From an uncultured Candidatus Saccharibacteria bacterium (GTDB lineage: Bacteria > Patescibacteriota > Minisyncoccia > Phycocordibacterales > UBA9973): 64,000 nucleotides of DNA. Position 1 is the first letter of the stretch. Each line of letters begins with the position of its first letter. Position numbers and translations under genes: made by a program. The DNA is taken from assembly GCA_964646765.1 (NCBI GenBank), contig CAZYIA010000001.1:151339-215338 (forward strand), written 5' to 3'. Under the pieces are notes generated by a model, which saw only the letters and a list, made by a program, of their open reading frames with translations, searched no databases and was not told the origin of the DNA. Shown piece by piece: positions 5,793 through 31,761 of the stretch.

Positions 5793-5956
5793 TACTGGCT
5801 TAATTTAAATCCAAGCCAAATACCCAAAATTCCGCCAACTGCGGAAAGGAGAATTGAAGAAATCGAAAACATGCTAGCGCCCCAGAGGCCGGGTATTGCT
5901 CCACCGATAGTTGAGCCGATAAATAATCCGAGCCAAACAAAAGGTTTTGCATTCAT
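5789..5956 (-). CDS. Small hydrophobic membrane protein (55 aa), not in the ORF track
   Basis: Manual translation MNAKPFVWLGLFIGSTIGGAIPGLWGASMFSISSILLSAVGGILGIWLGFKLSQY; fills an otherwise empty gap; coordinates +/-1. Confidence 0.35.
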   Translation of the reverse strand: MNAKPFVWLGLFIGSTIGGAIPGLWGASMFSISSILLSAVGGILGIWLGFKLSQY

Positions 5957-5971
5957 AGTGCAAGTATAGCA

Positions 5972-12024: not shown

Positions 12025-12204
12025 ATGGAAACTAAAGAACATTACATTTGTTTAGGAGGCTGTCATGGCGTTTCTGAGAATCCGGGCGTTTGCCAGGCGG
12101 CAGATTGTGCTAATCATAACCACGAGCTCGTGCCATGTGACTGTACTGATGGTACTCATTACAACTTTGAACACGGTGCAAACGGAGTAACCCAGAATGG
12201 CTAA
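12025..12204 (+). CDS. Small Cys/His-rich protein (59 aa), putative metal-binding; not in the ORF track
   Basis: METKEHYICLGGCHGVSENPGVCQAADCANHNHELVPCDCTDGTHYNFEHGANGVTQNG has 6 Cys and 7 His. Its stop overlaps the start of the next small ORF (AATGGCTAA). Confidence 0.4.
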   Translation: METKEHYICLGGCHGVSENPGVCQAADCANHNHELVPCDCTDGTHYNFEHGANGVTQNG

Positions 12205-12466: not shown

Positions 12467-13549
12467 ATGGCAAAAGACTACTACAAAGTATTAGGCGTTG
12501 AACGAGGTGCAACAAAGGAAGACATCAAGAAAGCCTTCCGTAAATTGGCGCATCAGTATCATCCAGACAAAAATAACGGGGACGATAAGAAGTTTAAGGA
12601 AGTGAACGAAGCGTACCAAGTGCTCTCTGATGACCAGAAACGCGCCCAGTACGATCAATTTGGTTCTGACTTCCAAGGATACGCAGGTGGCCAAGGAAAT
12701 CCATTCCAGGGCGGTTTTGGTGGCTTCAATCAAGGTGGCTTTAACGTGAACTTTGAAGATCTTGGTGACTTAGGTGAAATGTTCGGCTTCGGCGATATTT
12801 TTGGTGGTGGCGGACGTGCCCGCGAGGCTCGCGGCCGTGATATTGCAACTGAAATCAATGTCTCGTTTAAAGACGCTGCGTTTGGAACTGAACGCCGAGT
12901 GCTCTTAACTAAAACGTCACTTTGTCACGTATGTGCAGGAAGCGGCGCAAAGCCAGGGACGAAAAAGAAAACTTGTACGAAATGTAACGGTAAAGGCCAG
13001 GTGCGCGAAACTCGAAATTCATTCTTTGGTCAAATTGCTACAACCGCAGTTTGTTCGACGTGTCAGGGAAGTGGTGAAATTCCGGAAACTCCATGTACTA
13101 ACTGTCACGGTGCTGGTGTAGAAAATCGCCAAGAGGAAATTACTATCGTTATTCCAGGCGGCATTGAAAATGGCGAAATGATTCGTATGACCGGTATGGG
13201 CGAGGCCGTAAAAAATGGCACAGCTGGAGATTTGTATGTAAAAGTAAATGTCTCGTCTGATCCGGTATTTAAACGAAACGGTAAAGACATTCACATGACA
13301 CTTCCAATTAAGCTTACTGAAGCTCTACTTGGATCTGTGAGAAAAGTAGCGAGCCTCGATGGAGTAGTTGAAGTTACTATTCCTGAAGGAGCGCATCACG
13401 GTCAGCAAATCAGAATTAAAGGAGAGGGCATTATGGCCGAGCGCGGACGCCGCGGAGATATGGTAGTTTCGCTTGATATTGCACTGCCAAATAAACTCTC
13501 TAAAAAAATGCGCGAACTGGTTGAGAAAATGAAAGAAGAAGGAATGTAG
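12467..13549 (+). CDS. dnaJ: Chaperone DnaJ (Hsp40)
   Basis: J-domain YYKVLGV..HPDKN; G/F-rich region; four CxxCxGxG zinc-finger repeats. Confidence 0.95.
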
Positions 13550-14206: not shown

Positions 14207-15580
14207 ATGAAAAGGAACTGGAAAAAATTTTGGAAGCTCGGGGTTGAGGAATTCAACACCCAGTACTTTGGCTTAACGAAAGACGGCGAGCTTACCGTGT
14301 CGGAAGGTAACTACGTGTACACGCTCTACGATTTGGTTAAGAAGTATGGTTCACCGGCAAAAATCTACTTTCCGTTTATTTTGGAAAACCGTCTTCGTGA
14401 CCTCATTGAATACTTTAACGCCTACATTAAAATCAACGGCTACAAAGGTAAGTTTTTCTACCACTACCCAATGAAGGTTAACCAGAACCGTGAAGTGGTG
14501 CTTCCACTTGTGGCTGATGGTGCTCACCTCGAAGTAACTTCGTCCAACGAACTTTGGATTGTGAAGAAGCTTTGGGAAGGTGACAAATTCCACGAACGTC
14601 TCCGAGTGCTCTGTAACGGTCCAAAAACTGAGGAATACATTAATCTTATTTTTGAACTCCGTAGTAAGGGTTTAAACATTATCCCAATTATTGAAACCGA
14701 AGGGGAAATGGTTGCTCTTGAAAAGTATAAAGGTGATATCGGTGTACGAGTTGATTTGGCTATTAAAGCTGATACTCATTGGGATAAAAAAATTGACCGT
14801 TTTGGCCTTTCTGAAAAGCGTGTGCTTGAGCTTCCAAAAATGAAGAACTTAAAACTTCTTCACTACCACATTGGTTCACAGGTTCGTACTCAAAAAAGTT
14901 TGCTCGACGCGGTAAAACGCGGCTTCATGATTTATAGCGAGCTTGCTAAAAAGCATCCAAGTCTGGATACGCTCGACGTTGGCGGTGGTTTTTCGGTGCC
15001 GTACGAAAAGAAAAAACTCTACACTGCAAAAACGATGGCAAACCAAATTGTGAAGCTTTTGAAGAATCTTTCTGAAAAAGCCGGCATTCGTCATCCGAAC
15101 ATTGCCGTTGAGTGGGGCCAGTACGTTGTGGCTCCTGCACAGGTAACGGTGTATAAAGTGATTGCCGAAAAAGATATTCCAAAAGGAAATGCTAAAGCTT
15201 GGTACATTGTTGATGGCAGCTTTATGAATGATCTCACCGACACCTGGGCGATTCACCAAAAGTGGCATGTAGTACCAGTAAATAATGCGACACGAGGTGA
15301 AATGCAGCGCGTGTGGCTTGCCGGAAGTACCTGCGACTCAGACGATAAATACACTGCTGGTGGTAACTATATTTTGTTGCCAAAATTGAAGGAAGGTGAA
15401 GATCAGTATGTGGCAGTATTTGATACCAACGCATACCAAGAATCACTCGCTTCACACCACTGCTTGTTGTCGCAACCTGCGAAATTACTTGCTCAAGATG
15501 GTAGTATTAAAGTGATTCGCAAAAAAGAAACTGCTGAATCAATTGGAAAACTCTTCGGCTGGTCTAACGGCGAAAAGTAA
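14207..15580 (+). CDS. speA: Biosynthetic arginine decarboxylase-like PLP enzyme (fold III, SpeA type), short 457-aa form
   Basis: HYHIGSQ and LDVGGGF motifs. N-terminal ILENRLRDLIEYF resembles SpeA ILQHRLRSINAAF. Lacks the long C-terminal domain of E. coli SpeA. Confidence 0.65.
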   Translation: MKRNWKKFWKLGVEEFNTQYFGLTKDGELTVSEGNYVYTLYDLVKKYGSPAKIYFPFILENRLRDLIEYFNAYIKINGYKGKFFYHYPMKVNQNREVVLPLVADGAHLEVTSSNELWIVKKLWEGDKFHERLRVLCNGPKTEEYINLIFELRSKGLNIIPIIETEGEMVALEKYKGDIGVRVDLAIKADTHWDKKIDRFGLSEKRVLELPKMKNLKLLHYHIGSQVRTQKSLLDAVKRGFMIYSELAKKHPSLDTLDVGGGFSVPYEKKKLYTAKTMANQIVKLLKNLSEKAGIRHPNIAVEWGQYVVAPAQVTVYKVIAEKDIPKGNAKAWYIVDGSFMNDLTDTWAIHQKWHVVPVNNATRGEMQRVWLAGSTCDSDDKYTAGGNYILLPKLKEGEDQYVAVFDTNAYQESLASHHCLLSQPAKLLAQDGSIKVIRKKETAESIGKLFGWSNGEK

Positions 15581-15606
15581 ACGTTATCGGTAATTTTTTA
15601 AAAACT

Positions 15607-16581
15607 ATGGCACACAAAATTGATCTTGCCTGGATTGAGGCAAACTACTATCACTTTAATGCTGGCGCACTCACTCGCGCGACCAAGGATTATATCGATC
15701 ACCTTAAAAGTGGCGGCAAAATGCTCGTAGCAATGGCTGGAGCAATGTCTTCAGCTCGCTTGGGTGTAACGCTTGCACCGATGATTCGCGAAGGTAAAGT
15801 GCATGCAGTTTCTTGTACCGGTGCAAACCTCGAAGAATCAGTATTTCGCTTGGTTGCTCACGATAGCTACCATCTCTTCCCAAACTATCGCTATTTCACT
15901 AAGGAAGATGACACCAAAATTTTAGACGACGGCCACCGCCGCGTTACCGATATGTCGATTCCTGAAGAAGAAGCATTTCGAAAAATTGAAGCACTTATTG
16001 TAAAGCGCTGGAAAGCGGCTGAAGAAAAAGGTGAGCGTTATTTCCCGCACGAATATTTTTACCAGCTCCTTCTTTCCGGTGAACTAAAAGATCTTTACGA
16101 AGGAAAACCTGAAGAATGTTGGCTTTTAGCTGCCGCAGAAAAGAATTTGCCGATTGTGGTTCCAGGTTGGGAAGACTCAACACTCGGAAACATTTTTGCT
16201 GGGTACTGTAAGCGCGGGGAAGTAAAGCCACAGGTTATGAAGAGTGGTATTGAATATATGATGTACCTCTACGATCAGTATAAGGAACTTGCAAAGGCTG
16301 GTTCTGGCCTCGGTTTCTACCAAATTGGTGGTGGTATTTCAGGAGATTTCCCAATCTGTGTTGTGCCTTCGATCAAGTACGATCTCCAAGAAGAAGTTCG
16401 CCCATGGGGTTACTTCTGCCAGATTTCTGACAGTACTACTTCATACGGTTCATATTCTGGTGCTACACCAAACGAAAAAATTACCTGGGACAAGCTCACG
16501 AAAGATACTCCAATGCACGTTATTGAGTCAGATGCCACAATTGTCTGCCCAATAATGTTTGAAGCGATTCTCAATAGTTAA
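15607..16581 (+). CDS. Deoxyhypusine synthase-like protein (DHS/homospermidine synthase family)
   Basis: VAMAGAMSSARLGVTLAPMIREGKVHAVSCTGANLEE has the DHS-family NAD/spermidine-binding core; 324 aa. Confidence 0.7.
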   Translation: MAHKIDLAWIEANYYHFNAGALTRATKDYIDHLKSGGKMLVAMAGAMSSARLGVTLAPMIREGKVHAVSCTGANLEESVFRLVAHDSYHLFPNYRYFTKEDDTKILDDGHRRVTDMSIPEEEAFRKIEALIVKRWKAAEEKGERYFPHEYFYQLLLSGELKDLYEGKPEECWLLAAAEKNLPIVVPGWEDSTLGNIFAGYCKRGEVKPQVMKSGIEYMMYLYDQYKELAKAGSGLGFYQIGGGISGDFPICVVPSIKYDLQEEVRPWGYFCQISDSTTSYGSYSGATPNEKITWDKLTKDTPMHVIESDATIVCPIMFEAILNS

Positions 16582-16593
16582 TTTATTTAAGTA

Positions 16594-16632
16594 AAAAAGC
16601 CTGACTGATAGATTTAGTCAGGCTTTTTTCTT
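16594..16632. terminator. Bidirectional intrinsic terminator
   Basis: AAAAAGCCTGACT..AGTCAGGCTTTTTT. Confidence 0.6.
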
Positions 16633-16641
16633 TTGTCTTTG

Positions 16642-17388
16642 TTACACAAGACTTCCGATTTCTAAGCCAAGAAATTTACTTGCCGATTGGCCTTGCATCA
16701 TTACTTCCAAAAATCGTTTTTCTTTATACCCAGAACTCCCTCTGACAAAAGCAGGAATATTGTTTTTAGGAACATCAGCTAATTTTTCGTAGTAGACGTT
16801 GTCGAGTGAAGTATAGCTATTCAAGTTAACTCGTTTTCCAGTTGAAGTAGTTTTACAATTACCAAAGCAGTCAATTCGCCAAATAAAGTTTTGTTTACCA
16901 AAATCTTCTATCTCGATTTCATGAGAAGGAATATTGTTGCCCCCAAGAATCCATTGAGTGAGGTGAGGTAAATATTCATAACTTCTAAATTGGGATTCCG
17001 AGGTTCTCTTAGCCTCTCTTTTCGTGAGGAACTTACTGCAAACTTCTAAAACATCTGTTTGGTATGTTTTTGAGAATAGCCCTAGCTTTTTTGCCAGCGA
17101 AAAACAATTTGGTGTACCAATGACTACTATTTTTCCAAAAGTATGAAAACAGAAGGGAATTCCGTTTGAGTACTTTTCTTTATTGCCTCGAGGGGCAACG
17201 TTTACCACAATAACGGCAGGTTGGCCTTTTCGAGCATCGATGGCGTCAATAAGCTCTCCCTGGGCTTCTAAGTCGGTACAAGCACCGATAAATGTTTGAG
17301 ACACGTTACCTAAGAGTGCTTGGTAGCGGCTTTGCTGTCTCCCACGAGCATTGTCGTCTTGGCAATCAGAAATGATGGTTAGTTGCAT
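16642..17388 (-). CDS. DUF62-like SAM hydroxide adenosyltransferase (SAM hydrolase) family protein
   Basis: N-terminal LTIISDCQDD. VIVVNVAPRG resembles the VDPGVG region. IDCFGNCKTT resembles the DUF62 C-domain IDxFGNLITN. Inference from motif similarity. Confidence 0.5.
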   Translation of the reverse strand: MQLTIISDCQDDNARGRQQSRYQALLGNVSQTFIGACTDLEAQGELIDAIDARKGQPAVIVVNVAPRGNKEKYSNGIPFCFHTFGKIVVIGTPNCFSLAKKLGLFSKTYQTDVLEVCSKFLTKREAKRTSESQFRSYEYLPHLTQWILGGNNIPSHEIEIEDFGKQNFIWRIDCFGNCKTTSTGKRVNLNSYTSLDNVYYEKLADVPKNNIPAFVRGSSGYKEKRFLEVMMQGQSASKFLGLEIGSLV

Positions 17389-17581
17389 AGTTTTAAGTTT
17401 TAAATGAACAAAAAACAGCCTTTTCGGGGCTGCTTTTTACATTTCATTGATGTACGAGAGTGTTCTAGTTCATGCAATGCAATAAGCAACCCCGAGTTCT
17501 GGGCTGTTCATCATTGCCATCATGTTCTGTGAATTGCGTTGCATAAAATTAGTTAAACATCTCCACCTTAAAAAGTCAAAA

Positions 17582-18493
17582 TTAACTAAAGTGTCTCGCT
17601 AAAATGTTGTAGCAAATTTGGGCGGCGCCAAATTCAGTGCGAACGTCATCTTTGGCTGGTGAAACCTCAACAATATCAAAGCCAATCAGTTTTTTAGTTG
17701 CGCCAATTTTGTTAAAAAGTTCCCAGGCAAAATACCAATCAAGGCCGCCTTGTACTGGTGTACCAGTTGCTGGCATAAATCCTGGATCGATACCGTCTAC
17801 ATCAATAGAGAGATAGATGTACTTGGTTTTAAGAGCAGCAATAATTTTTTCAAGAGTCGGTCGTTCCTTTTTTGACCATTCGAAGATAGTAATTTGGCCA
17901 GGTTTACTAGCCGCATACTCAAACTCTTCTGTGCTTCCTGTGCGGATGCCAACTGAAACAATGTTATAGCCCATTTCTCCTGCATGGCGCATAACGGTTG
18001 AGTGAGCGAAGTTTGAAGGGTGAGTGCTGTAATCGGCGTCAGAAGAGCGCATATCCAGGTGGGCATCAATGTGAAGAATAGTTACTTCTTTCGGACTATA
18101 CTTTTCTTTAAGCGACATAAGGGCGCCAATGGTCATTGAGTGTTCGCCGCCGAGCATTACTGGAAGAGAACCAGCCTGTACAATTTTTTTATGAGCAGCA
18201 TAAAGTTTGCCAACCGCCTTTTCTGGATTTGAAACCAAGTTTAGTGCTTTGAGAGAATTGTCGAGAGCAACGGTAAAATTTTCGATTGGTTCCGAATTCA
18301 TCTCGCGATCATAAAACTCAATTTGATGATCGAGACAATCTGCGATAACGCCAGGGCCCTTTGCTGTGCCTTTTCGAAATGATGCCGTGCGGTCGTAGGG
18401 AGCTAAAAGGAGAGTAGCGTCTGCTTTAGCGCCTTTTTTCCCGTTAATAATGGAAGCTATTTTTTGCATGGCGCTATCATAACATACAAGCAA
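17582..18493 (-). CDS. speB: Agmatinase / arginase-family ureohydrolase
   Basis: GGEHSMTIGA, DAHLD and SIDVDGIDP manganese-binding signatures. Confidence 0.8.
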   Translation of the reverse strand: MLVCYDSAMQKIASIINGKKGAKADATLLLAPYDRTASFRKGTAKGPGVIADCLDHQIEFYDREMNSEPIENFTVALDNSLKALNLVSNPEKAVGKLYAAHKKIVQAGSLPVMLGGEHSMTIGALMSLKEKYSPKEVTILHIDAHLDMRSSDADYSTHPSNFAHSTVMRHAGEMGYNIVSVGIRTGSTEEFEYAASKPGQITIFEWSKKERPTLEKIIAALKTKYIYLSIDVDGIDPGFMPATGTPVQGGLDWYFAWELFNKIGATKKLIGFDIVEVSPAKDDVRTEFGAAQICYNILARHFS

Positions 18494-18588
18494 GACTGGC
18501 TCTAGACACTGAACGACTTGTAGTGTCTTGTTATTGTGTATGGTATAATTATGGCTTACTAAAACAAAGGAAAGGGATAGTATATGAC

Positions 18589-19638
18589 ATGGATGAGTCT
18601 GTAATTAAACAAAGCCCAGAGTATAGTAATCACGAAGTCGTAGAATACTTTACTGACCCAAAAACAGGATTGCGGGGGATTATTGCTCTGCATTCACGAA
18701 AGCGTGGCCCAGCAGTTGGTGGTACGCGTTACTATGCATATACGACAGACGAAGATGCGCTTGAAGATGTGTTGAAACTTTCTCGAGCGATGTCATATAA
18801 ATGTGCACTCGCTAACGTACCTTATGGAGGGGGAAAGTGTGTTTTAATTGCACCTCCTCACTCAGGAAAGAAAACTAAAGAGTATCTCGAGTCGTACGGA
18901 AAAATGCTTAAAAAGTACGAAACTGATTTTTATACTGGCGAAGACGTTGGTATGGCTCAGGAAGATATTGAAGAGTTAAGTACAGTAACCTCAAATATTA
19001 TTGGCACTCTTGCAAAGGCCGGTGATCCTTCACCTTGGGCTGCTTTCTCAGTTTTTTATGCACTCCGCGCAGCGCTTACCTTTGTATATGGCGAACCTTC
19101 ATTTCAAGGAAAGAAAATTTCTATCAAAGGTCTAGGAAAAGTTGGCATGGAACTTGCTCGATTGGTGAGTGAACAAGGCGCGGTTCTTACGGTAACTGAT
19201 GTTAATCAATCTCTCATTGATGAAGCGCTTAAGAGATTTCCTGGAACCATAGCTTCTACGCCTAACGATATTGTAAATGTTCCTTGCGATGTTTTTGCTC
19301 CATGCGCATTAAGTAAAGATATTACCAATGAGCGAGCAAAAACGATTCAGGCAAAAGTAATTTGTGGAGCAGCTAATAATCAACTCGAATCAGATGCTGC
19401 AGGCGTTACACTTTTTGAGCGAGGAATTATGTATGTTCCGGATTACATTGCTAATGCTGGTGGCTTAATTAATGTAGTTGCTGAGCTTGAAAAGGATGGT
19501 TACAACCGAGAAAATGTCGTGAAGAAATGTCAGCATATTGAGGAGGTTGTTGCTTCTGTTTTGCAAGAAAGTAAAGAAAAGAGCATTGCACCCAATATTG
19601 TAGCGGATACTATCGCCAAAAGAGTGCTTGCAGCATAG
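18589..19638 (+). CDS. Leucine/phenylalanine dehydrogenase (Glu/Leu/Phe/Val dehydrogenase family)
   Basis: GPAVGGTRYYAYTTDEDALEDVLKLSRAMSYKCALANVPYGGGK; Rossmann GLGKVG. Start set at the internal ATG 18589 downstream of the extended -10 TGGTATAAT (18540..18548). Confidence 0.8.
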   Translation: MDESVIKQSPEYSNHEVVEYFTDPKTGLRGIIALHSRKRGPAVGGTRYYAYTTDEDALEDVLKLSRAMSYKCALANVPYGGGKCVLIAPPHSGKKTKEYLESYGKMLKKYETDFYTGEDVGMAQEDIEELSTVTSNIIGTLAKAGDPSPWAAFSVFYALRAALTFVYGEPSFQGKKISIKGLGKVGMELARLVSEQGAVLTVTDVNQSLIDEALKRFPGTIASTPNDIVNVPCDVFAPCALSKDITNERAKTIQAKVICGAANNQLESDAAGVTLFERGIMYVPDYIANAGGLINVVAELEKDGYNRENVVKKCQHIEEVVASVLQESKEKSIAPNIVADTIAKRVLAA

Positions 19639-19641
19639 TGT

Positions 19642-21150
19642 ATGGCAGCAAAGCGATACCAACTAAAGAACAACCGAGTCTTAGCTGATCTCAAATTAAA
19701 AAAGAGTGCCTACTGGCAAAAAAAGCGAGAGGCGCATGCACTTTCAGTATTTAAGGATACTATTGCACATGTTCCTGCCTACCGAGATTTTCTTAAAAAG
19801 AATGGTATTAATCCTTCCAAAATAAAAAATTGGAAAGATTTTCAAACGCTTCCGATAATGACTAAAGACTCATATCTCCGAAGCTATGAACTCCAGGAAC
19901 TTTGCAAAAAGGGAACACTCGCGCATCCTTTAGTATTTACTTCAACTTCAGGATCAACAGGAGAACCATATTATTTTCCGCGCTTTGAAAAACTAGATCG
20001 TGAATATTCAGTACTCGCTGAGTTTTACATGAGTCAGCACAAAGAGACGCTAAAGGGTCCAACGCTGGTGGTAATTTGTTTTGGTATGGGAGTCTGGATT
20101 GGTGGACTGATTACCTACCAAGCGTTTGAATCAGCAAGTCGTGAAAGTGGTTACCCAATTTCTATTATCACACCGGGAACGAATAAAGATGAGATTATCA
20201 AAGTTTTGGCGTCTCTTTCGCCACGATTTTCGCAAACACTGCTTATTGGATATCCGCCATTTGTAAAAGACATTATCGATGAAGCATCGCGCAAGAAAAT
20301 TCCGCTCAAGAAATATAATCTTCGATTGATGTTTGCCGCAGAATCTTTTTCGGAAACATTTCGTGATTATCTTGCTCGAAAAGCTGGTATCGAAAATGTG
20401 TATCGCGACACCTTAAATATTTATGGTAGTGCCGACATTGGTGCGATGGCCTGGGAAACTGGAGTTTCAATTTTAATTAAGCGCTTGTTGAAGAAAAATA
20501 AAAAGCTTTACAGTGCTTTCTTTCCGTCAGTTTCGCGAATGCCAACGCTTGCACAGTACAATCCTGAATTTATTACTTTTGAATCTATTGATAACAAGAT
20601 TGCATTAACTGCTAATAATGCGCTGCCGCTTGTTCGTTATGCTCTTGGAGATCATGGGGGCGTGATTGATTTTGCTAAGGCGCAGCGTATCTGTAAAGAA
20701 CACGGATATGATTTACTCGCAGAAGCAAAAAAAGTGGGAATTCCGACGGTGCCTGAACTACCATTTGTGTATGTATATGAGCGAAGCGATTTCTCGACAA
20801 AACTCTATGGGGCGATTGTTTATCCAGAATATATCAAAGGAGCGCTTGAACGAGATGAATTTGCTGATGTACTCACTGGTAAGTTCACGATGTTCACCCG
20901 CAATGGAAAAAATCAGGATCAATATCTTGAAGTGAATGTTGAACTCACGCCTGAAGTTAAAGAGTCAGCGGAACTTGCTGCTCAGGTTTCCGACCGCATT
21001 TTTGAGGAACTTATTGAACGAAGCACGGAATGCCGAAATAACGCTCAACTTCTTGGCGACAAAATGAAGCCAAAAATCATTTTTTGGCAGAACGGTGACC
21101 CAACTTACTTCAAAACAGGTATTAAGCAAAAATGGGTAAAAAAGGCCTAA
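19642..21150 (+). CDS. PaaK / coenzyme-F390-synthetase-like adenylate-forming enzyme
   Basis: P-loop FTSTSGSTGEPYYFP. N-terminal AHVPAYRDFLKKNGINPSKIKNWKDFQTLPIMTKDSY matches the PaaK-family N-domain. Confidence 0.7.
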   Translation: MAAKRYQLKNNRVLADLKLKKSAYWQKKREAHALSVFKDTIAHVPAYRDFLKKNGINPSKIKNWKDFQTLPIMTKDSYLRSYELQELCKKGTLAHPLVFTSTSGSTGEPYYFPRFEKLDREYSVLAEFYMSQHKETLKGPTLVVICFGMGVWIGGLITYQAFESASRESGYPISIITPGTNKDEIIKVLASLSPRFSQTLLIGYPPFVKDIIDEASRKKIPLKKYNLRLMFAAESFSETFRDYLARKAGIENVYRDTLNIYGSADIGAMAWETGVSILIKRLLKKNKKLYSAFFPSVSRMPTLAQYNPEFITFESIDNKIALTANNALPLVRYALGDHGGVIDFAKAQRICKEHGYDLLAEAKKVGIPTVPELPFVYVYERSDFSTKLYGAIVYPEYIKGALERDEFADVLTGKFTMFTRNGKNQDQYLEVNVELTPEVKESAELAAQVSDRIFEELIERSTECRNNAQLLGDKMKPKIIFWQNGDPTYFKTGIKQKWVKKA

Positions 21151-21200
21151 AATACTGTTTCTTTGGCTCAATATACGATATACTTTTGCTAGTTTAGGCC

Positions 21201-22385
21201 ATGAAGGAAGTAATGGATTACATCGAGGAAGGTCTTCAGAGAAAAGCTGCCGTACAACCGGTATTTTTCCGTCTCTCACAAAAAGAAGATGCCGACAAAC
21301 TCAAGGCTTTATTTGAAGCAGGGAAAATACAGCGAGTTTCAGACGATTACAAAGAACAGCAACTTGAGCTTTTTGGAATTAACAATCCAACAAAAGTATA
21401 TCAACCAGGTTTTAAAGAATTGTTTGCGGAATATTTCAGTGCATTAGAGCAACAGCAACCGCTAGCTACCCACGGCATCTGGGTTTATTTTCCATGGTCT
21501 TCGACGTTGACGCATATCTTGGAAGAAAAAGAATTTCAACTCGTTCGAACAGCGCGCAATCGCAACCTTATCAACAGCGACGAACAGGAAAAATTTCATA
21601 ATGCCACTATCGGTATTGGTGGACTTTCTGTTGGTTCGAGTGTTGCTTTTGCTTTAACGCTTCAGGGCGGCCCAAAGCACATTAAATTAGCTGACATGGA
21701 TCGCTTTGCGCTCACTAATACAAATCGCGTGCTCATGGGTGTGGATTATCTTGGCGAACTGAAAGTAGAAATGGCCGCTCGCCGAATCTATGAAATAAAT
21801 CCGTATACGACCATTGAACTTTTTCCTGAAGGATTGCATAAAGAAAATATTGAGCGATTTTTTGACGGTCTCGATCTGGTGATTGATGAGCTCGATAACC
21901 TCGCCGTAAAGTATTTGATTCGCGTTGAAGCACAAAAGCGAAAATTACCAGTAGTTATGGCGGCAGATAACGGAGATAATGCAGTCGTTGATATTGAACG
22001 CTACGACCTCGATCCTAACTTAAAGTTTTTCCAAGGACGACTTGGCGAAACTTCATATGAAGAGCTCGCTAGTTTAGATAAATTTGGCATTGGTAAAACT
22101 ATTACCAAACATATTGGTCCTGAAAATGTAACCGCGCGAACCCAGGATTCTCTTTTGGAGATGGGGAAGACGATTGTTTCGTGGCCACAGCTTGGCGGAG
22201 CAGCGCTTATTAACGGTGCAGCGGTAGCGTACTGTGTCCGAAAGATTTTAAATGGCCAACCACTTGAACATAACCGGGCTCTTGTTTCGCTCGACGAAAA
22301 ACTTGTTCCAAATTATAACGCTCCGGAAGAAGTGGAGAATCGCGCTAAAGTATCTGAATCATTTAAGAAAATTTTTGGTTTGTAA
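21201..22385 (+). CDS. ThiF/MoeB (E1-like) adenylyltransferase-fold protein with an N-terminal extension of about 130 aa
   Basis: Rossmann IGIGGLSVGSSVAFALTLQGG..KLADMDRFALTNTNRV. Confidence 0.7.
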   Translation: MKEVMDYIEEGLQRKAAVQPVFFRLSQKEDADKLKALFEAGKIQRVSDDYKEQQLELFGINNPTKVYQPGFKELFAEYFSALEQQQPLATHGIWVYFPWSSTLTHILEEKEFQLVRTARNRNLINSDEQEKFHNATIGIGGLSVGSSVAFALTLQGGPKHIKLADMDRFALTNTNRVLMGVDYLGELKVEMAARRIYEINPYTTIELFPEGLHKENIERFFDGLDLVIDELDNLAVKYLIRVEAQKRKLPVVMAADNGDNAVVDIERYDLDPNLKFFQGRLGETSYEELASLDKFGIGKTITKHIGPENVTARTQDSLLEMGKTIVSWPQLGGAALINGAAVAYCVRKILNGQPLEHNRALVSLDEKLVPNYNAPEEVENRAKVSESFKKIFGL

Positions 22386-22390
22386 TTATC

Positions 22391-23461
22391 ATGGAGGAAG
22401 ACCTTAAAAAAATTCTTGAAAGTGCGATTCAAGCTCCGTCGGGAGAAAATTCTCAACCTTGGCGAGTTAAAGTTTCTGGAATGACTGTTGAACTCTGGAA
22501 TAATCCAGAAAGTGATCAGTCACTCTATAACAGCGGACAATTAGGTTCCATGATTGCCCACGGTGCTTTTATTGAGAATGCCGTAATAGCTGCTAAACAC
22601 TATGGCTACGAGACCGGAGTGGCTTTGTTTCCTAATAAAGAAAATCTTAATCAAGTAGCAGTACTTTCATTTTCAAAGAAGGCTACTCAAACAGAAGATA
22701 TTCTGTTTTCTTTAATTGAAAAACGTTGTACAAATCGTAAATCCTACAAGACTGATGCGGTAGAAGCAGCCGTTGCGAATGATCTTATTTCTGGTTCTTC
22801 TGGAAACGTAAAAATATACGTCACCCAAGAAACAGAAGCCAAAGAAATACTCGGTGCAGTCGGAGGAGCTAATGAGCAAATCATGCTCTCCAACGAATAT
22901 ATCCACGGTTTTTTCTTTTCTCATGTTAGCTGGACCAAAGAAGAGGATCGAGAGCGATCAGTTGGTTTTTTTATTGACACTCTTGAGTTACCAGCACCGG
23001 CTCGTTTTGCTTTTAAATTTATTCAAAAATGGAATCGGCTGGCGTTTCTTAATAAATACTTAGGACTATATAAGGCTATTGGGAAACAAAATGCAAAAGT
23101 ATATGGAGAAGCTTCCGGATTTTTAGCGTTTACAGTTCCAGCTAATTCTCCTGAGTCATTTGTAGAAGCGGGAAGAATTATCGAACGCACTTGGCTTGTA
23201 GCAACTAAGCATGGTTTAAGTATGCAACCAGTGAGTGGTCTTCTTTTTTTAAGAAACGCAATGCTCAGAAATGATACAGCCACTTTCTTTAATGATGAAC
23301 AGCGCATAACAATAACGGAAGCGTACCAGAATATCCAAAAAGTATTTAGTCTACCTGAGAATGAAACGGTTGCATTCATGTTTCGCTTTGGACGATCAAA
23401 TCCACCCACCGCTCGAGCATCTCGCTTTCCTCTTGAAAAAATAATGTACAATGCTTCTTAA
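22391..23461 (+). CDS. Tandem two-domain nitroreductase-family (SagB/Acg-like) protein
   Basis: ILESAIQAPSGENSQPWRVKV nitroreductase N-terminal motif; 356 aa, consistent with a duplicated nitroreductase fold. Confidence 0.65.
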   Translation: MEEDLKKILESAIQAPSGENSQPWRVKVSGMTVELWNNPESDQSLYNSGQLGSMIAHGAFIENAVIAAKHYGYETGVALFPNKENLNQVAVLSFSKKATQTEDILFSLIEKRCTNRKSYKTDAVEAAVANDLISGSSGNVKIYVTQETEAKEILGAVGGANEQIMLSNEYIHGFFFSHVSWTKEEDRERSVGFFIDTLELPAPARFAFKFIQKWNRLAFLNKYLGLYKAIGKQNAKVYGEASGFLAFTVPANSPESFVEAGRIIERTWLVATKHGLSMQPVSGLLFLRNAMLRNDTATFFNDEQRITITEAYQNIQKVFSLPENETVAFMFRFGRSNPPTARASRFPLEKIMYNAS

Positions 23462-23463
23462 TC

Positions 23464-25152
23464 ATGTTTAACGCGTATTCATCCAACTCAAACTTTAATC
23501 TTCTTATTGTCGGTGTTGCAATTGCGGCTATTGCGTTACTCGGTTTTACCGTCTTCTTTAACGATCGTAAAAGCAGAACAAATCGTGCCTTTTTCTACTA
23601 CGCAATCGCAGTGGTATTCTGGGGTATTTCAAACTATCTTGAATATCAATTTCAGTCTCCCACGATTGTCCTTTTTGCTTTACGAGCGCATATCGCGATT
23701 TCTGTATTGTATTGTCTTACCTTTTTCCGTTTAGCATATGTATTCCCATGGAGTGAAGTTACTTTTCCGCGTTGGCATCGGTTTTTTGTTTTTCCTCTAG
23801 CGCTCGTTACTATGGTGGTAGCTTTTACACCGCTTACTTTTAAACGCATTCTATCTTTAGCTCCGGTTGGAGAAGTAACGCCTGCACAAACTGGGCCGGG
23901 AATGGGCTTTTTTGGAATCATGGCATTTGGTCTACTTGTTGGCGGCCTTGCCATACTTTGGAGAAAGCGAAATAAAAGTTCTGGAGTAGAGAAGAAACAA
24001 ATTACATATGTCTGGTGGGGGATGCTTATTACTGCACTTCTAACTTTAACCTTTAATTTTGTTTTACCAGTTCTCTTTAATAACGTACGCTATATTCCAT
24101 TTGCCGCTCTCTTTGTTCTGCCGTTTATTTCTCTCATTTCATACACTATTTATCGACATCAGCTCTTTAACGTTAAAGTTGCTGCCGTTGCCCTCGTTAC
24201 CTTTATTCTTACCGTCTTCAGTCTCTTCAACGTTATCTACGCAACAAGCACAAGCCAAGTTGTCTTCAATGTTATTTTCTTCACTTCAATCTTGGCCGGA
24301 AGCGTTCTTCTCATTCGCAGTATTCTTCGAGAAATTGAACAGCGAGAAAAATTAGAGATTTTAGATAAAGAACTCGAAACTGCAAACGAAAAATTAAAAG
24401 AGCTTGATAAGCTGAAGACCGAATTTCTTTCCCTTGCTTCTCATCAATTGCGAAGTCCACTCACCGCTGTAAAAGGCTACACATCGATGCTCTTGGAAGG
24501 AGACTTCGGCGCTGTGAATCCGCAACAAAAAGAGGCTATTGACCGCGTGTATCAGTCGGTAACCCACCTTACTCGTGTTGTGGAAGATCTTCTTAATGTT
24601 ACTAAGATTGAACTTGGTGGTATGCAGTACACCATGCGCCCGTTTGACCTCGATACAGCAACCGAAGAACTTGTTTCGGAACTTCGAGTGACAGCCGAAA
24701 AGAAAGGACTCAAACTTATTTTTGATTGCGACACCAAGAAGAGCTACCCAATATTGGGTGACGAAGAGAAGCTCCGCCAGGTATTTCTTAACTTTATTGA
24801 TAACTCAATTAAATATACCGAAAAAGGCGAAGTTCGTGTTTCAGTTACGAAAGACACTGCTAAAAATCAAATTACTTTTGCAGTTACAGATACTGGTATG
24901 GGTATGACTCCTGAGACTCAGGCTAGCCTCTTCCAGAAATTTGTCCGTACAGACAAATCAAAAGAAGTTAACCGTGGTGGCTCGGGTCTTGGTTTGTATC
25001 TCGCAAAGCAGATTGTTGAGGCCCATCATGGCAGTCTCATTGTTTCTTCTCCAGGTGTTGGAAAAGGTTCCACGTTTGGCGTCGTGCTCTCACTTGCCTC
25101 ACCATCAACTTCATCAACAGAGTGGAAGAGTGGTAGTGAAAAAAACGCTTAG
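23464..25152 (+). CDS. Sensor histidine kinase with a multi-TM N-terminal domain (no cognate response regulator adjacent)
   Basis: At least 7 hydrophobic helices; HisKA FLSLASHQLRSPLTAV; HATPase_c region. Confidence 0.85.
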   Translation: MFNAYSSNSNFNLLIVGVAIAAIALLGFTVFFNDRKSRTNRAFFYYAIAVVFWGISNYLEYQFQSPTIVLFALRAHIAISVLYCLTFFRLAYVFPWSEVTFPRWHRFFVFPLALVTMVVAFTPLTFKRILSLAPVGEVTPAQTGPGMGFFGIMAFGLLVGGLAILWRKRNKSSGVEKKQITYVWWGMLITALLTLTFNFVLPVLFNNVRYIPFAALFVLPFISLISYTIYRHQLFNVKVAAVALVTFILTVFSLFNVIYATSTSQVVFNVIFFTSILAGSVLLIRSILREIEQREKLEILDKELETANEKLKELDKLKTEFLSLASHQLRSPLTAVKGYTSMLLEGDFGAVNPQQKEAIDRVYQSVTHLTRVVEDLLNVTKIELGGMQYTMRPFDLDTATEELVSELRVTAEKKGLKLIFDCDTKKSYPILGDEEKLRQVFLNFIDNSIKYTEKGEVRVSVTKDTAKNQITFAVTDTGMGMTPETQASLFQKFVRTDKSKEVNRGGSGLGLYLAKQIVEAHHGSLIVSSPGVGKGSTFGVVLSLASPSTSSTEWKSGSEKNA

Positions 25153-28526: not shown

Positions 28527-29945
28527 TTAAAATGCGCCGCCGAAGGGATCGCTAGCGGCTGTAGCAGAAGGACTAAACCCTTCAGCTGAATTCTTATCAA
28601 GATCCATAAAGGTGGTACGTTTCTGATCAAAGTAGAGTTCAACATCGCCAACAGGGCCGTTACGATGCTTTGCCACGATGATTTTAGTGATATTGGTGCG
28701 CTCCTCTTTTTCCTTGAAGCGATCTTCACTGTGAATAAACATCACCACATCGGCATCTTGTTCAATAGAACCGGAGTCACGGAGGTCAGAAAGACGAGGT
28801 TCACCACCGCGGCTTTCAACTGCACGAGAGAGCTGAGAAAGTGCAAGTACTGGCACGTTTAAGTCACGAGCCAAGCCTTTAAGCGAGCGAGAAATTTCGG
28901 TTACTTGGTTCACCATTGAATCATAATTTTTACTGGTACCCATGAGCTGGAGATAGTCGACAATGATAAGGCCAAGACCATGTTCAGCTTTTAAGCGGCG
29001 AGCAAAGGCGCGCATTTTTGAAATGGTGTTTGATGATTCATCTTCGATAAAGATCGGTGCTTTTGAGAGACGATCGAGGGCGTCACGCAAACTGGTAAAC
29101 TCATTGTCTTTTGAAAGTCGTCCTGTGCGGAGGTTCCAAGCGTTCACTCCTGCTTCAGCAGCAAGCATACGATCAACAAGTTGCTGGGCTCCCATTTCGA
29201 GCGAGAAAATACCAACCGGCACATTATTACGGGTAGCAGCTAAGCGAGCGATATCGAGAGCGAGTGTTGTCTTACCAACTGAAGGTCGTGCGGCAAGAAT
29301 GATAAGATCAGAATTTTGGAGTCCTGCTAAAAGATTATCGAGACTCTGGAATCCGGTTGGTACTCCGCGCATTTCGCCTGGCTTCTCATGGAGGGTTTCA
29401 ATGCGAGTCCATGCTTCGGAAAGAGTATCGCGAAGGGGAACAAAGCGCTGCGTTTTTCGGCCACTAGAAATTTCGAATACACGCTTCTCGGCTTTATCAA
29501 GGGTGTCTTCAATTTCATCACCAGTTTCCGTGAAGCCAAGTTCTGAAACGTACTCGCCAGCGTCAATCAAAGAACGAAGGGTTGCCTTGCGTACCACGAT
29601 ATCAGCATAGTAACGAGCATTGGTGGAGGCTGGAACATTTTCAACAAGTTCTGCAATATACGCAGAGCCTCCAACACGCTCAAGGGAACCTTGTTCGCGG
29701 AGACGGTTGGTAAGCGAGAGAAGGTCAATTGGTTCATGGCGAGCGGCCAGTTCCTGCATAGCCATAAAAATAATCCGGTGTTTATCAGCGTAAAAAGCTT
29801 CAGGGGTTAGAATGTCTTCAGTTTCATAGAGTGCCTGTGGTCGCAAAAGAATAGCACCGAGAAGAGCCTTTTCAGACTCTAAACTTTGCGGAGGAATACG
29901 ACCAGGATTATGTGCTTTGGCTGCCATGGAGCTAGATTCTACCAT
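28527..29945 (-). CDS. dnaB: Replicative DNA helicase DnaB
   Basis: N-terminal PPQSLESEKALLGAIL; Walker A GARPSVGKT; RecA-like C-domain. Confidence 0.95.
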   Translation of the reverse strand: MVESSSMAAKAHNPGRIPPQSLESEKALLGAILLRPQALYETEDILTPEAFYADKHRIIFMAMQELAARHEPIDLLSLTNRLREQGSLERVGGSAYIAELVENVPASTNARYYADIVVRKATLRSLIDAGEYVSELGFTETGDEIEDTLDKAEKRVFEISSGRKTQRFVPLRDTLSEAWTRIETLHEKPGEMRGVPTGFQSLDNLLAGLQNSDLIILAARPSVGKTTLALDIARLAATRNNVPVGIFSLEMGAQQLVDRMLAAEAGVNAWNLRTGRLSKDNEFTSLRDALDRLSKAPIFIEDESSNTISKMRAFARRLKAEHGLGLIIVDYLQLMGTSKNYDSMVNQVTEISRSLKGLARDLNVPVLALSQLSRAVESRGGEPRLSDLRDSGSIEQDADVVMFIHSEDRFKEKEERTNITKIIVAKHRNGPVGDVELYFDQKRTTFMDLDKNSAEGFSPSATAASDPFGGAF

Positions 29946-30065
29946 GCCTGTTACTGGCTCAAAGTCATGATGTTTCTAAGCCTGTGGGGAACATGGGGAT
30001 ATAGTTATCTCTCTTCTATGTATCACTTTGTAAGTACACCTTTGCGTGGTATCCTTGCTGTATCT

Positions 30066-31070
30066 ATGGAAAAAAGGGAGATTCGTGCGCTTACAGGAGA
30101 TCGTCCAACGGGAAAATTACATCTTGGTCACTACGTTGGCTCAATTAAAAGCAGACTAGCGCTCCAGGACACTGCCACCGCTTCTTTTTATATGGTGGCC
30201 GATGTTCAAGGACTTACTGATAATGCTGACAATCCTGAAAAAGTTCGTTCGAATGTATTGGAAGTAGCTCTCGATAATCTTGCCTGCGGCGTTGACCCAG
30301 CGAAGACAACTTTTTTCATTCAGTCAGAAGTTCCAGAAATTGCTGAGCTCACTATTTTTTTCATGAATCTGGTAACGGTGGCTGAAGTTGGCAGAAATCC
30401 AACCGTAAAAACAGAAATTGCTCAAAAACAATTTGGTGAAAGCGTGCCACTTGGTTTTTTCTGTTATCCAGTTTCGCAGGCAGCCGATATTTTGTTTACT
30501 CGAGCAAACACCGTGCCAGTTGGTGACGACCAGTTGCCAATGATTGAGTTAACTCGCGAAATTGCTCGAGCATTTAATCGAACTTACCAAACTGATCTTT
30601 TCCCGGAACCACAGGCAATGACTGGCATGCGATTAGTCGGCACAGACGGTACAGCAAAAATGTCGAAGTCGCTTGGCAATACGATCTATTTCGCTGACTC
30701 TAACGAAATGATTGAACAGAAAGTGAAAGAGATGTACACCGATCCGAATCACATTCATGTAGCGGATCCAGGCAAGGTGGAGGGCAACGTGGTATTTACC
30801 TATCTCGATGTTTTTGATCCCAAAAAAGACGAAGTGGCCGAACTCAAAGCTCAATATGAAAAAGGTGGCTTAGGTGACATGGTCATTAAAAAGCGTCTCA
30901 CTGAAGTGCTTCAAGATTTCATTTCACCAATTCGCGAGCGTCGTGAACATTTAGCGAAAGATCCAAAACAGGTGATGGACATTCTGCGTGCCGGCACCCA
31001 GCGAGCCCGCGAAGAAGGAAAAGTAACTCTCGATCTTGTTCGTCAAGCGATGAAAATTAACTATTTCTAA
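30066..31070 (+). CDS. trpS: Tryptophanyl-tRNA synthetase
   Basis: TGDRPTGKLHLGHYVG (HIGH-type) and KMSKSLGN. Start set at the internal ATG 30066 (MEKREIR..), giving 334 aa. Confidence 0.85.
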   Translation: MEKREIRALTGDRPTGKLHLGHYVGSIKSRLALQDTATASFYMVADVQGLTDNADNPEKVRSNVLEVALDNLACGVDPAKTTFFIQSEVPEIAELTIFFMNLVTVAEVGRNPTVKTEIAQKQFGESVPLGFFCYPVSQAADILFTRANTVPVGDDQLPMIELTREIARAFNRTYQTDLFPEPQAMTGMRLVGTDGTAKMSKSLGNTIYFADSNEMIEQKVKEMYTDPNHIHVADPGKVEGNVVFTYLDVFDPKKDEVAELKAQYEKGGLGDMVIKKRLTEVLQDFISPIRERREHLAKDPKQVMDILRAGTQRAREEGKVTLDLVRQAMKINYF

Positions 31071-31072
31071 GT

Positions 31073-31348
31073 ATGAAAAAGCAGTTACTCTCACGCAAGG
31101 AAACGCTTCGTAGTATTCAGGCGGCAAGCAAAAAACCAGAAGTACTTGAAGCACTGCTCGAGCATATGCTTACTCCTGGTGAGTATGATGAGCTAGTAGT
31201 TCGTACTGAAATCTTAAAACGGTTGCTAAAGGGTGAACAGCAAAGGGTAATTGCTAAAGACCTAGGTATCGGAATAGCTACGGTTACTCGCGGCAGCCGC
31301 GAAGTTCAGCGGATGACGCCAGAGATAAAAAAGATTATACTAAAGTAG
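31073..31348 (+). CDS. TrpR-family (Trp repressor / YerC-YecD-like) DNA-binding protein
   Basis: GIGIATVTRGSREVQ matches the TrpR recognition-helix region GAGIATITRGSNSL. Separated from the trpS stop (31068..31070) by 2 nt. Confidence 0.6.
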   Translation: MKKQLLSRKETLRSIQAASKKPEVLEALLEHMLTPGEYDELVVRTEILKRLLKGEQQRVIAKDLGIGIATVTRGSREVQRMTPEIKKIILK

Positions 31349-31349
31349 T

Positions 31350-31580
31350 ATGTTTTTCGCCTTTATCTTTCATCTCTTCAAGTTCCTGATAACGGTGCTC
31401 CTGGGTATTATTTACTTACCACTTAACCATTTTTTGCTTTGGATTGGTGGTGAGTACCAGTCTATAAAGAAAACTAATATTGTGCTGTACTGGTTGGTTC
31501 GCATCGCTATTTTCCCAATTTGGGGTGTAGCGGCTATATTTTCAGCTCCTTACGAAATGCTGCTTGATAGCATGCACTAA
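31350..31580 (+). CDS. Small membrane protein (76 aa)
   Basis: Hydrophobic ORF immediately after the trpR-like gene. Confidence 0.4.
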   Translation: MFFAFIFHLFKFLITVLLGIIYLPLNHFLLWIGGEYQSIKKTNIVLYWLVRIAIFPIWGVAAIFSAPYEMLLDSMH

Positions 31581-31589
31581 AGGCGCTAT

Positions 31590-31760
31590 AGTACCAAAAC
31601 CGACGATCCTGCTGACACCAGGGGAGGTATGAGAGTAATCTCCGGGAGCGCCCGTAATAGTGCAGAGAGTAGAAACGTAGGGTGGCACCGCGGTTGAAAA
31701 ATCGCCCCTGCAAATTAACAGTGTTAATTTGGAGAGGCGATTTTTTGCTTCTCGCATACA
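31590..31760 (+). promoter_or_regulatory. T-box riboswitch leader upstream of aspS
   Basis: Conserved T-box sequence AACGTAGGGTGGCACCGCGG. Followed by a long terminator hairpin (ATCGCCCCTGCAAATTAACAGTGTTAATTTGGAGAGGCGAT) plus a TTTTTT run. GAGAG k-turn-like and AGTGCAGAGAG elements lie upstream. Confidence 0.7.
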
Positions 31761-31761
31761 T

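Follow-up and report, generated by a model that had tools for sequence, protein, structure and literature searches.

A candidate oxazolone-type gene cluster with a PaaK-like ligase and a conserved sensor kinase in Patescibacteria

Introduction

Oxazolones (azlactones) are synthesized enzymatically by ThiF-fold proteins together with nitroreductase-superfamily flavoenzymes of the flavin-dependent oxidase (FDO) type. This ThiF-FDO route was found only in 2020–2021 and is known in Pseudomonadota, Actinomycetota, and Planctomycetota. Here we analyze a stretch of contig CAZYIA010000001.1 (positions 151,339–215,338) and, within it, a five-gene cluster at 18523–25152 that, as judged from its protein families, resembles a so far undescribed form of the oxazolone pathway. 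The window denotes the whole 64,000-nt stretch at its full length, and coordinates count from its first letter. The names of homologues place the host, an ultra-small bacterium, in the Patescibacteria, or candidate phyla radiation (CPR).

Several oxazolone systems have been described. TrzS, which is Rv1355c, belongs to the TrzA/TrzS pair (Rv1356c/Rv1355c) of Mycobacterium and Rhodococcus. It was shown in 2025 to cyclize N-acyl-tryptophan with ATP and then to desaturate it with flavin mononucleotide (FMN) and O2, yielding an N-acyl tryptazolone (PMC12856293). The split TyzB/TyzC pair and the fused OxzB carry out equivalent chemistry with tyrosine and phenylalanine (PMC10404671; bioRxiv 10.1101/2020.06.11.147165). 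According to a 2025 review, a small molecule is the known substrate of just one ThiF-like enzyme, OxzB (PMC12596934). An N-acyl amino acid synthase is part of every published oxazolone and N-acyl-dehydrotyrosine cluster (PMC10404671, PMC12856293, PMC12479983). The discoverers regarded the physiological role of oxazolones as unresolved and speculated about signalling (PMC12856293).

The window cluster resembles TrzA/TrzS in that its ThiF and FDO proteins together span the Rv1355c family model from one end to the other, N-terminal extension included, and keep the adenylation motifs. ATP-dependent cyclization followed by flavin-dependent desaturation would thus be expected here too. Unlike TrzS, the enzyme is split over two genes, which are separate and adjacent as in TyzA/TyzB/TyzC of Mycobacterium tuberculosis (PMC10404671). 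No TrzA-type N-acyltransferase is present, and the cluster instead contains a PaaK-like ligase, an amino-acid dehydrogenase, and a dedicated seven-transmembrane (7TM) kinase. The host also differs, being a member of the Patescibacteria rather than a mycolic-acid actinobacterium. An aromatic amino-acid theme is shared with Tyz, with OxzA/OxzB of Pseudoalteromonas rubra, and with the stieleriacine NasY/ThiF/nitroreductase clusters (PMC12479983). Those systems, in contrast, use an N-acyl amino acid synthase with acyl-coenzyme A (acyl-CoA) or acyl-acyl carrier protein (acyl-ACP), and reports of them mention neither a ligase of the PaaK-like kind nor a deaminating enzyme or sensor kinase. The two oxazolone papers in the Journal of Biological Chemistry make no mention of Patescibacteria, "ligase", or "histidine kinase", and a literature search found no paper combining the genes of this cluster.

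On balance, we favor, by a modest margin over even, the reading that the operon would make an oxazolone-type molecule from amino-acid-derived blocks without an acyl-CoA-dependent N-acyltransferase. A sequence-only reading of the window had proposed an uncharacterized small-molecule or peptide modification pathway built on an E1-like protein and a nitroreductase. A small-molecule pathway combining an E1-like protein with a nitroreductase-superfamily flavoenzyme agrees with the present analysis, and it is probably a heterocycle-making one.

Organization and conservation of the cluster

The cluster consists of five co-directional genes.

18523–19638, + strand: NAD(P)-dependent ELFV amino-acid dehydrogenase (Pfam ELFV_dehydrog, ELFV_dehydrog_N)
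19642–21150, + strand: putative divergent PaaK-like (ANL superfamily) adenylate-forming ligase (fold model, motifs)
21201–22385, + strand: ThiF-fold protein (Pfam ThiF; N-terminal half of NF005901)
22391–23461, + strand: tandem (pseudo-dimeric) nitroreductase/FDO (C-terminal half of NF005901, Acg-family model)
23464–25152, + strand: membrane-embedded sensor histidine kinase (Pfam HisKA_7TM, HisKA, HATPase_c)

The intergenic gaps are 3, 50, 5, and 2 nt in order, and the reading frames agree with the sequence-only reading in their direction, domains, and spacing of at most 50 nt. For the dehydrogenase, the ATG at 18589 is probably the real start, and a Shine–Dalgarno-like AAGGAAAGGG lies upstream of it. 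At the other end, the kinase gene and the convergent cysS meet tail to tail, their 3' ends sharing 4 nt (25149–25152), and no terminator-like structure lies between them. Promoter and terminator scans gave counts not above those in shuffled sequence. An Rfam search over 10–32 kb of the window returned no structured RNA or riboswitch match.

To place the cluster among other genomes, one genome per species in GTDB was searched with an alignment of the PaaK-like protein. The species representatives contain 393 PaaK-like relatives, and the best 80 all lie in metagenome-assembled genomes (MAGs) of Patescibacteria/CPR. Locus counts anchored on the PaaK-like gene refer to these best 80 of 393, filtered by the available flank (L and P numbers are our own handles for loci and proteins).

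At least 1.3 kb downstream: ThiF in 69/71
At least 4.5 kb downstream: ThiF in 54/56, nitroreductase in 48/56, kinase in 49/56, all three in 47/56
At least 1.3 kb upstream: dehydrogenase immediately 5' of the ligase in 34/73

The order PaaK-like ligase, ThiF, nitroreductase, kinase thus recurs in 47 of the 56 species-level genomes with enough flank, an arrangement far beyond chance. Conservation of gene order had been set as a check on the sequence-only reading; synteny is strongly kept, and scattering of the genes is not seen. ThiF is the most conserved component (65–77% identity to orthologues), compared with about 50–70% for the ligase and 39–49% for the FDO. Judged by homology, the oxazolone-type cluster is widespread in Patescibacteria.

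Some genomes hold more than one copy of these genes. One locus carries two PaaK-like/ThiF pairs in tandem (L070). A Saccharibacteria-labelled MAG (CAZVGP01) holds two clusters in one assembly: a split, dehydrogenase-type cluster (L077), and one composed of a tyrosine ammonia-lyase (TAL), the ligase, a fused ThiF-FDO, a methyltransferase, and the kinase (L117).

The ThiF and nitroreductase proteins form a split Rv1355c/TrzS family member

Scored alone against NF005901, the model of the Rv1355c family, the ThiF protein reaches 321.8 bits over model positions 6–348, and the nitroreductase 170.2 bits over 375–718. When the two proteins, whose genes are separate in the genome, are joined artificially in silico, they match the model in one stretch (6–718 of 722) and score 497.8 bits, exceeding the curated cutoff of 476. 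Because each protein matches its own half of the model and the joined sequence exceeds the cutoff, the two genes are, by sequence, assigned to the Rv1355c/TrzS oxazolone-synthase family as a copy split in two. Naturally fused ThiF-FDO proteins, 42–50% identical to the window ThiF, also occur inside PaaK-like/kinase clusters. A phmmer search with ThiF retrieved 932 relatives at E <= 1e-30. In one Rv1355c-family protein from Chloroflexota (P0408), the C-terminal region is weakly GNAT-like instead, pointing to the classical arrangement there.

The Pfam ThiF domain begins at residue 119. The N-terminal extension, put at 130 residues by the sequence-only reading, is therefore present at about 118 residues, and the structure model predicts it confidently as an α/β domain. 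The joined end-to-end match to NF005901 indicates that the extension belongs to the family and is no oddity.

Across 70 orthologues, ThiF keeps the adenylation motifs GLSVG, AD.D, N.NR, K, and DELDN, which points to an intact adenylation site with its Gly-rich loop, ribose Asp, Arg/Lys, and Mg-binding Asp. From the E1 motif we infer that its aspartate is equivalent to Asp217 of TrzS, which is essential in that enzyme. Across the same 70 orthologues there is no conserved cysteine or CxxC, and no column exceeds 49% cysteine. An E1 thioester and a zinc site of the MoeB/ThiF kind are thus excluded. The best match of ThiF in the PDB by sequence is TcdA, another oxazolone-forming dehydratase. Its best structural neighbour is AclA (9egb).

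The nitroreductase is of the Acg/FDO type rather than the SagB type suggested at first. Its best PDB match is Acg (2ymv), the structure that served as a template for TrzS. It scores 141.8 bits against the Acg-family model NF047509, gives no TIGR03605 match, and conserves the FDO motifs APSg.N.QPW and R.tnRk.y. Taken together, the family assignments make it quite probable that the ThiF and FDO proteins carry out an oxazolone-type cyclodehydration and desaturation.

A PaaK-like ligase in the place of an N-acyltransferase

The ligase has no Pfam match, and its likeness to PaaK/F390-synthetase is weak. TIGR02155, the PaaK model, aligns with the N-domain alone at 43.9 bits against a cutoff of 646.3, and the protein was ruled out as a PaaK orthologue on this ground. 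It carries TSGSTGEPYYFP at residues 102–113. An AlphaFold2 model (pLDDT 87.6) has BT_0428 and PaaK1/2 as its best Foldseek neighbours in the PDB (E 1e-21, TM-score 0.59–0.68). The motifs TSGSTGxP, YG.A..G, GD, ER.D, and a C-terminal lysine are invariant in 27 sequences, and AMP-binding_C_2 is detected in an orthologue. From this model and these motifs, the protein is predicted to belong to the PaaK-like branch of the ANL superfamily, with the two-domain PaaK fold.

The next Foldseek neighbours are the condensing ligases NatL2 and AjiA1 of benzoxazole biosynthesis (E ~1e-17). These PaaK-fold enzymes activate an aromatic acid with ATP and condense the acyl-adenylate directly with a nucleophile, which attacks without transfer to CoA. 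They are, however, only 15–16% identical to the window ligase and work with other partner enzymes.

No acyltransferase occurs among the cluster's own genes or immediate neighbours. Nor was one found among the identified gene families that are shared by 10 or more of the 80 PaaK-anchored loci, where four small upstream families (c22, c26, c29, and c32) are unannotated. By its position in the gene order, the PaaK-like ligase looks like the occupant of the usual N-acyltransferase place.

A natural fusion of the ligase to ThiF is found in a metagenomic protein of 863 residues (P0466). Its residues 16–503 are 41% identical to the window ligase over 488 residues (E 2e-128), and residues 513–861 form an Rv1355c-type ThiF. 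The gene lies in the order amino-acid dehydrogenase, fusion, α/β hydrolase, HisKA_7TM kinase, and receiver. The direct fusion suggests that ligase and ThiF catalyze consecutive steps. In addition, making an oxazolone from an acid and an amino acid needs two carboxylate activations, and the cluster holds exactly two adenylating enzymes. It is likely that the ligase provides the substrate of ThiF/FDO. That it makes the amide directly, independent of CoA, is a nearly even proposition, falling slightly on the doubtful side.

Deaminating enzymes upstream of the ligase

The dehydrogenase has Trp_DH_ScyB as its best NCBIfam match, and the score of 287 bits against the equivalog cutoff of 600 rules it out as ScyB itself. 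In the PDB it matches leucine dehydrogenase (LeuDH, 3vpx, 1e-74) and tryptophan dehydrogenase (TrpDH, 5b37, 4e-68). The catalytic residues K68, K80, and D115 (Lys/Lys/Asp) are invariant. At LeuDH positions 113 and 291 it has Gly and Leu, as in phenylalanine dehydrogenase (PheDH) and TrpDH; among orthologues, Gly is found in 38/38 and Leu in 37/38. We take these positions to be discriminating, with Ala113 and Val291 in LeuDH and Gly and Leu in PheDH. The enzyme is assigned by sequence to the Leu/Phe/Trp clade, with a predicted Phe/Trp-type pocket.

In some relatives that lack the dehydrogenase, a class I/II or class IV aminotransferase lies directly 5' of the ligase. L117 has a separate ammonia-lyase with a 4-methylideneimidazole-5-one (MIO) group in this place, closest to the flexirubin tyrosine ammonia-lyase (FlxA TAL-like), and in L116 an ammonia-lyase/aminomutase domain is fused to ThiF itself. 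Since these alternative enzymes all strip the α-amino group, mostly from aromatic amino acids, a deaminated acid is favored as the acyl donor of the ligase, and an upstream enzyme that merely supplies an amino acid fits less well. Taken as a specific claim, a deaminated aromatic acid as the donor is plausible at somewhat below an even chance.

There is a precedent of this kind in indolmycin biosynthesis, in which deamination turns tryptophan into indolepyruvate before an ATP-dependent enzyme forms the oxazolinone (PMC8246080). A tryptophanyl-tRNA synthetase (TrpRS) gene in the neighbourhood of the window locus is considered below. Ind3 of the indolmycin pathway is taken as a lead only.

The sensor kinase

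The kinase matches HisKA_7TM at 49.6 bits, together with HisKA and HATPase_c. According to the hydropathy profile, its first 290 residues contain about eight to nine hydrophobic segments joined by short loops and lack a large extracytoplasmic domain, so that any ligand would be sensed within the membrane.

In a reciprocal test, metagenomes were scanned with the 7TM sensor domain of the kinase alone (8 closer sequences), giving 33 loci. The scan motif came from cluster-linked kinases and hence samples orthologues.

Upstream flank of 1.15 kb or more: cluster gene no further than 1.5 kb upstream in 26/26
Upstream flank of 4.6 kb or more: all three enzymes in 17/17

Together with the 49/56 PaaK-anchored loci, these counts make the kinase a fixed, conserved member of the cluster. 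The sequence-only reading had regarded it as an orphan. In the sense that no response regulator accompanies it this holds, as tblastn with a receiver from relatives found none in the 64-kb window; it does not hold for the kinase as a cluster member, and relatives often have a stand-alone receiver. Such a receiver of about 130 residues (Pfam Response_reg) lies near the cluster in 22/80 loci.

At another locus (L121, 5001–11277), a fused ThiF-FDO of 764 residues is followed by a 259-residue family-less protein, a 7TMR-DISM kinase, and a hybrid kinase/receiver. The genome is probably of Bacteroidota, given a Por_Secre_tail neighbour, and the linkage of an oxazolone-type enzyme to a 7TM kinase may therefore extend past the CPR.

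LuxM/LuxN and CqsA/CqsS are pairs of an autoinducer synthase and a membrane kinase receptor. The window cluster is like them in that putative signal-synthesis genes stand beside a multi-transmembrane kinase without a periplasmic sensor domain, and here the linkage is conserved and reciprocal. The synthases are not homologous, however, and the likeness is a pure analogy. A kinase tied to the biosynthetic genes would also accord with the signalling role that has been speculated for oxazolones (PMC12856293). That the kinase senses the product of the cluster is accordingly offered as a tentative and rather doubtful idea.

Proposed pathway and alternatives

The following route would account for the gene set. 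The Phe/Trp-type dehydrogenase would strip the α-amino group of an aromatic amino acid to give an arylpyruvate, a role that an aminotransferase or a tyrosine-ammonia-lyase-like enzyme would take in relatives. The PaaK-like enzyme may then adenylate the deaminated acid, or another scavenged acid, and couple it to a second amino acid through the latter's amino group, forming an N-acyl amino acid; the ligase–ThiF gene fusion supports this step. By family membership, the ThiF-fold enzyme would adenylate the N-acyl amino acid at its carboxylate, and closure of the oxazolone ring by the amide oxygen would follow. The tandem nitroreductase/FDO, again by family, would desaturate the Cα/Cβ bond with FMN. 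Finally, the conserved linkage points to the multi-transmembrane kinase as a possible sensor of the lipophilic product or a related ligand, which would signal via a stand-alone receiver encoded elsewhere in the genome.

Several observations weigh against this route or limit it. ThiF and FDO score singly under the full-length NF005901 cutoff, being halves. The nitroreductase is present in only 48/56 loci, and in L115 an α/β hydrolase stands in its stead. Given the loci without it, desaturation is not universal among the clusters. Characterized FDOs use O2, and anoxic settings are home to many CPR bacteria. Beside the ligase, roughly half of the clusters lack a deaminating enzyme, so deamination could be dispensable or the acid could come from scavenging. 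The ligase might just yield an acyl-CoA for an unlinked transferase. For the kinase, linkage cannot separate a product receptor from a mere operon regulator. Beyond the identity of domains and families, all the chemistry is inferred.

The point about the ligase leads to the classical acyl-CoA route, in which the ligase would act only as a CoA ligase for aryl or alkyl acids, an N-acyl amino acid synthase would be encoded elsewhere, and ThiF/FDO would then form the oxazolone. The closest solved structures to the ligase are indeed true CoA ligases (PaaK1/2, BT_0428, and HCL), and the known oxazolone clusters all use an acyl-CoA- or acyl-ACP-dependent transferase (PMC10404671, PMC12856293, PMC12479983). 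However, the 113 related loci show, among the gene families identified, no recurring acyltransferase around the cluster, the fusion of ligase to ThiF in P0466 suggests consecutive steps, and the ligase is no PaaK orthologue, its TIGR02155 score being 43.9 bits against a cutoff of 646. We consider this route unlikely, though it is the strongest of the alternatives. Catabolism or salvage of aromatic amino acids would instead have the dehydrogenase and the ligase process arylpyruvate or arylacetate for energy or carbon, with ThiF, FDO, and the kinase as separate neighbours. A dehydrogenase from a catabolic enzyme family, the established action of PaaK-family ligases in aryl-acid metabolism, and the housekeeping genes around the operon are consistent with such a role. 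The conserved cluster nevertheless lacks a 2-oxoacid oxidoreductase or decarboxylase that would bridge arylpyruvate to arylacetate. Its strongest linkage is that of ligase and ThiF (69/71, plus the fusion), with the dehydrogenase in about half of the loci, and a catabolic role appears very improbable.

The ThiF protein might also act on a macromolecule, either on tRNA as in TcdA-like formation of cyclic N6-threonylcarbamoyladenosine (ct6A), or on the C-terminus of a peptide or protein as in peptides that are made by ribosomes and modified after translation (RiPPs), thiazole/oxazole-modified microcins (TOMMs), MccB/PaaA-like enzymes, or ThiS/MoaD systems, with the nitroreductase as an azoline or peptide dehydrogenase. 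The sequence-only reading had leaned toward azol(in)e-RiPP/TOMM or thiocarboxylate machinery. The TcdA model NF011696 gives 50.5 bits against a cutoff of 304, and the ThiF model PRK08644 gives 67 against 159. All MoeB models fall well under their cutoffs (the best at 65.3 against 449), and the MoeB/MOCS3 orthology weighed in that reading as a sign of primary metabolism is not seen. No SagB-type (TIGR03605) or TOMM docking-protein (TIGR03603) match appears at E <= 0.01, and the cluster lacks a recurring small ORF. YcaO is absent, as had been noted for the cluster, from the window proteins scanned, a scan that was not exhaustive. The azol(in)e-RiPP/TOMM and thiocarboxylate readings were rejected on these grounds together with the lack of a conserved cysteine or CxxC in ThiF and of a ThiS/MoaD partner, the gaps of at most 50 nt being too small for a gene. 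A macromolecular substrate is thus the least probable of the alternatives, at the far margin of what we would entertain.

The Cys/His-rich micro-ORF at 12025–12204, floated earlier as a possible substrate, was rejected: it belongs to no Pfam family and has no homologue in the 113 loci. Anti-phage defence of the E1-E2/Cap2-like kind was likewise rejected, as PADLOC returned weak E1-domain matches only (at most 32 bits) and none for the other enzymes.

Neighbouring and accessory genes

The window has the order DnaK, DnaJ, cluster, TrpRS, and aspartyl-tRNA synthetase (AspRS) (1541–3421, 12467–13549, and 29886–33144), with insertions between them. Many relatives show GrpE-DnaK-DnaJ, the cluster, and TrpRS-AspRS. 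The insertions in the window are a set of polyamine genes and the block cysS-corA-L21-recR-dnaB, and a Trp-repressor-like gene lies at 31073–31348. TrpRS is found within 8 kb of the cluster in 12/80 loci. Its nearness is probably explained by inherited synteny, because the DnaK-DnaJ-cluster-TrpRS-AspRS order is conserved. A role of TrpRS as a resistance gene, by analogy with indolmycin, was set aside on this account and kept as a lead only.

The polyamine set (14207–18493), which is not kept beside the cluster in other genomes, lies just upstream.

14207–15580: arginine/ornithine-decarboxylase-like gene
15607–16581: deoxyhypusine/homospermidine-synthase-like gene
16642–17388, − strand: 248-residue ORF without a family
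17582–18493, − strand: agmatinase, divergent and immediately upstream of the cluster

Further upstream, the 59-residue Cys/His-rich ORF (METKEHYICLGGCHGV...) at 12025–12204 precedes dnaJ and is unrelated to the cluster. Three large ORFs have no Pfam match: 4680–5792 (370 residues), 6928–10071 (1047 residues), and 41940–43652 (570 residues).

A methyltransferase of the cyclopropane-fatty-acyl/mycolic-acid-synthase (CMAS) type is encoded at 10771–11910 on the − strand (260 bits). In L082, a homologue of 47% identity lies about 4.6 kb downstream of the kinase. Such an enzyme is odd in CPR bacteria, which are thought to scavenge lipids.

Methyltransferase-like accessory genes occur between the nitroreductase and the kinase in four loci (L008, L027, L035, and L054) and in the cluster in four others (L016, L047, L049, and L117, at 5378–6136 in the last). 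They are of the UbiE/Methyltransf_11 type or belong to a 307-residue family without a Pfam match, assigned by a DLGAGG motif alone. The Stieleria clusters are similar in this respect, a methyltransferase being an optional accessory in some relatives of the window cluster.

An M19 "membrane dipeptidase" gene lies within or beside the cluster in four species (L006, L014, L028, and L078). The enzyme, of the dehydropeptidase family, may serve in processing or turnover; this role is proposed because unsaturated oxazolones hydrolyze to N-acyl dehydro-amino acids.

Implications

CPR hosts have minimal genomes with few biosynthetic genes, yet they carry the core enzymes of an oxazolone-type pathway. 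Judged from sequence, the novelty would lie in an oxazolone-synthase core with a different acylation logic, in a new phylum, and with a dedicated sensor. There are three departures from the described systems: an ATP-dependent PaaK-like ligase, plausibly a deaminated aromatic acyl donor, and a co-inherited membrane kinase.

The fixed sensor kinase turns the idea of oxazolones as signals into a directly testable hypothesis. In its fullest form, which we advance as a speculative and on present evidence rather unlikely proposal, the cluster would be a self-contained Patescibacteria signalling module. From scavenged amino acids, the ligase, ThiF, and FDO would make a signal that is an aryl-acyl oxazolone or a dehydro-amino acid, and the co-inherited 7TM kinase would be the receptor that feeds stand-alone CheY-like receivers. 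If true, the candidate phyla radiation would gain its first autoinducer-like pair of synthase and receptor, and bacterial oxazolones their first assigned physiological role, with a receptor. The cluster thus offers a candidate signalling system for a large radiation of uncultured bacteria, and perhaps a new biocatalytic route to azlactones that is independent of CoA.

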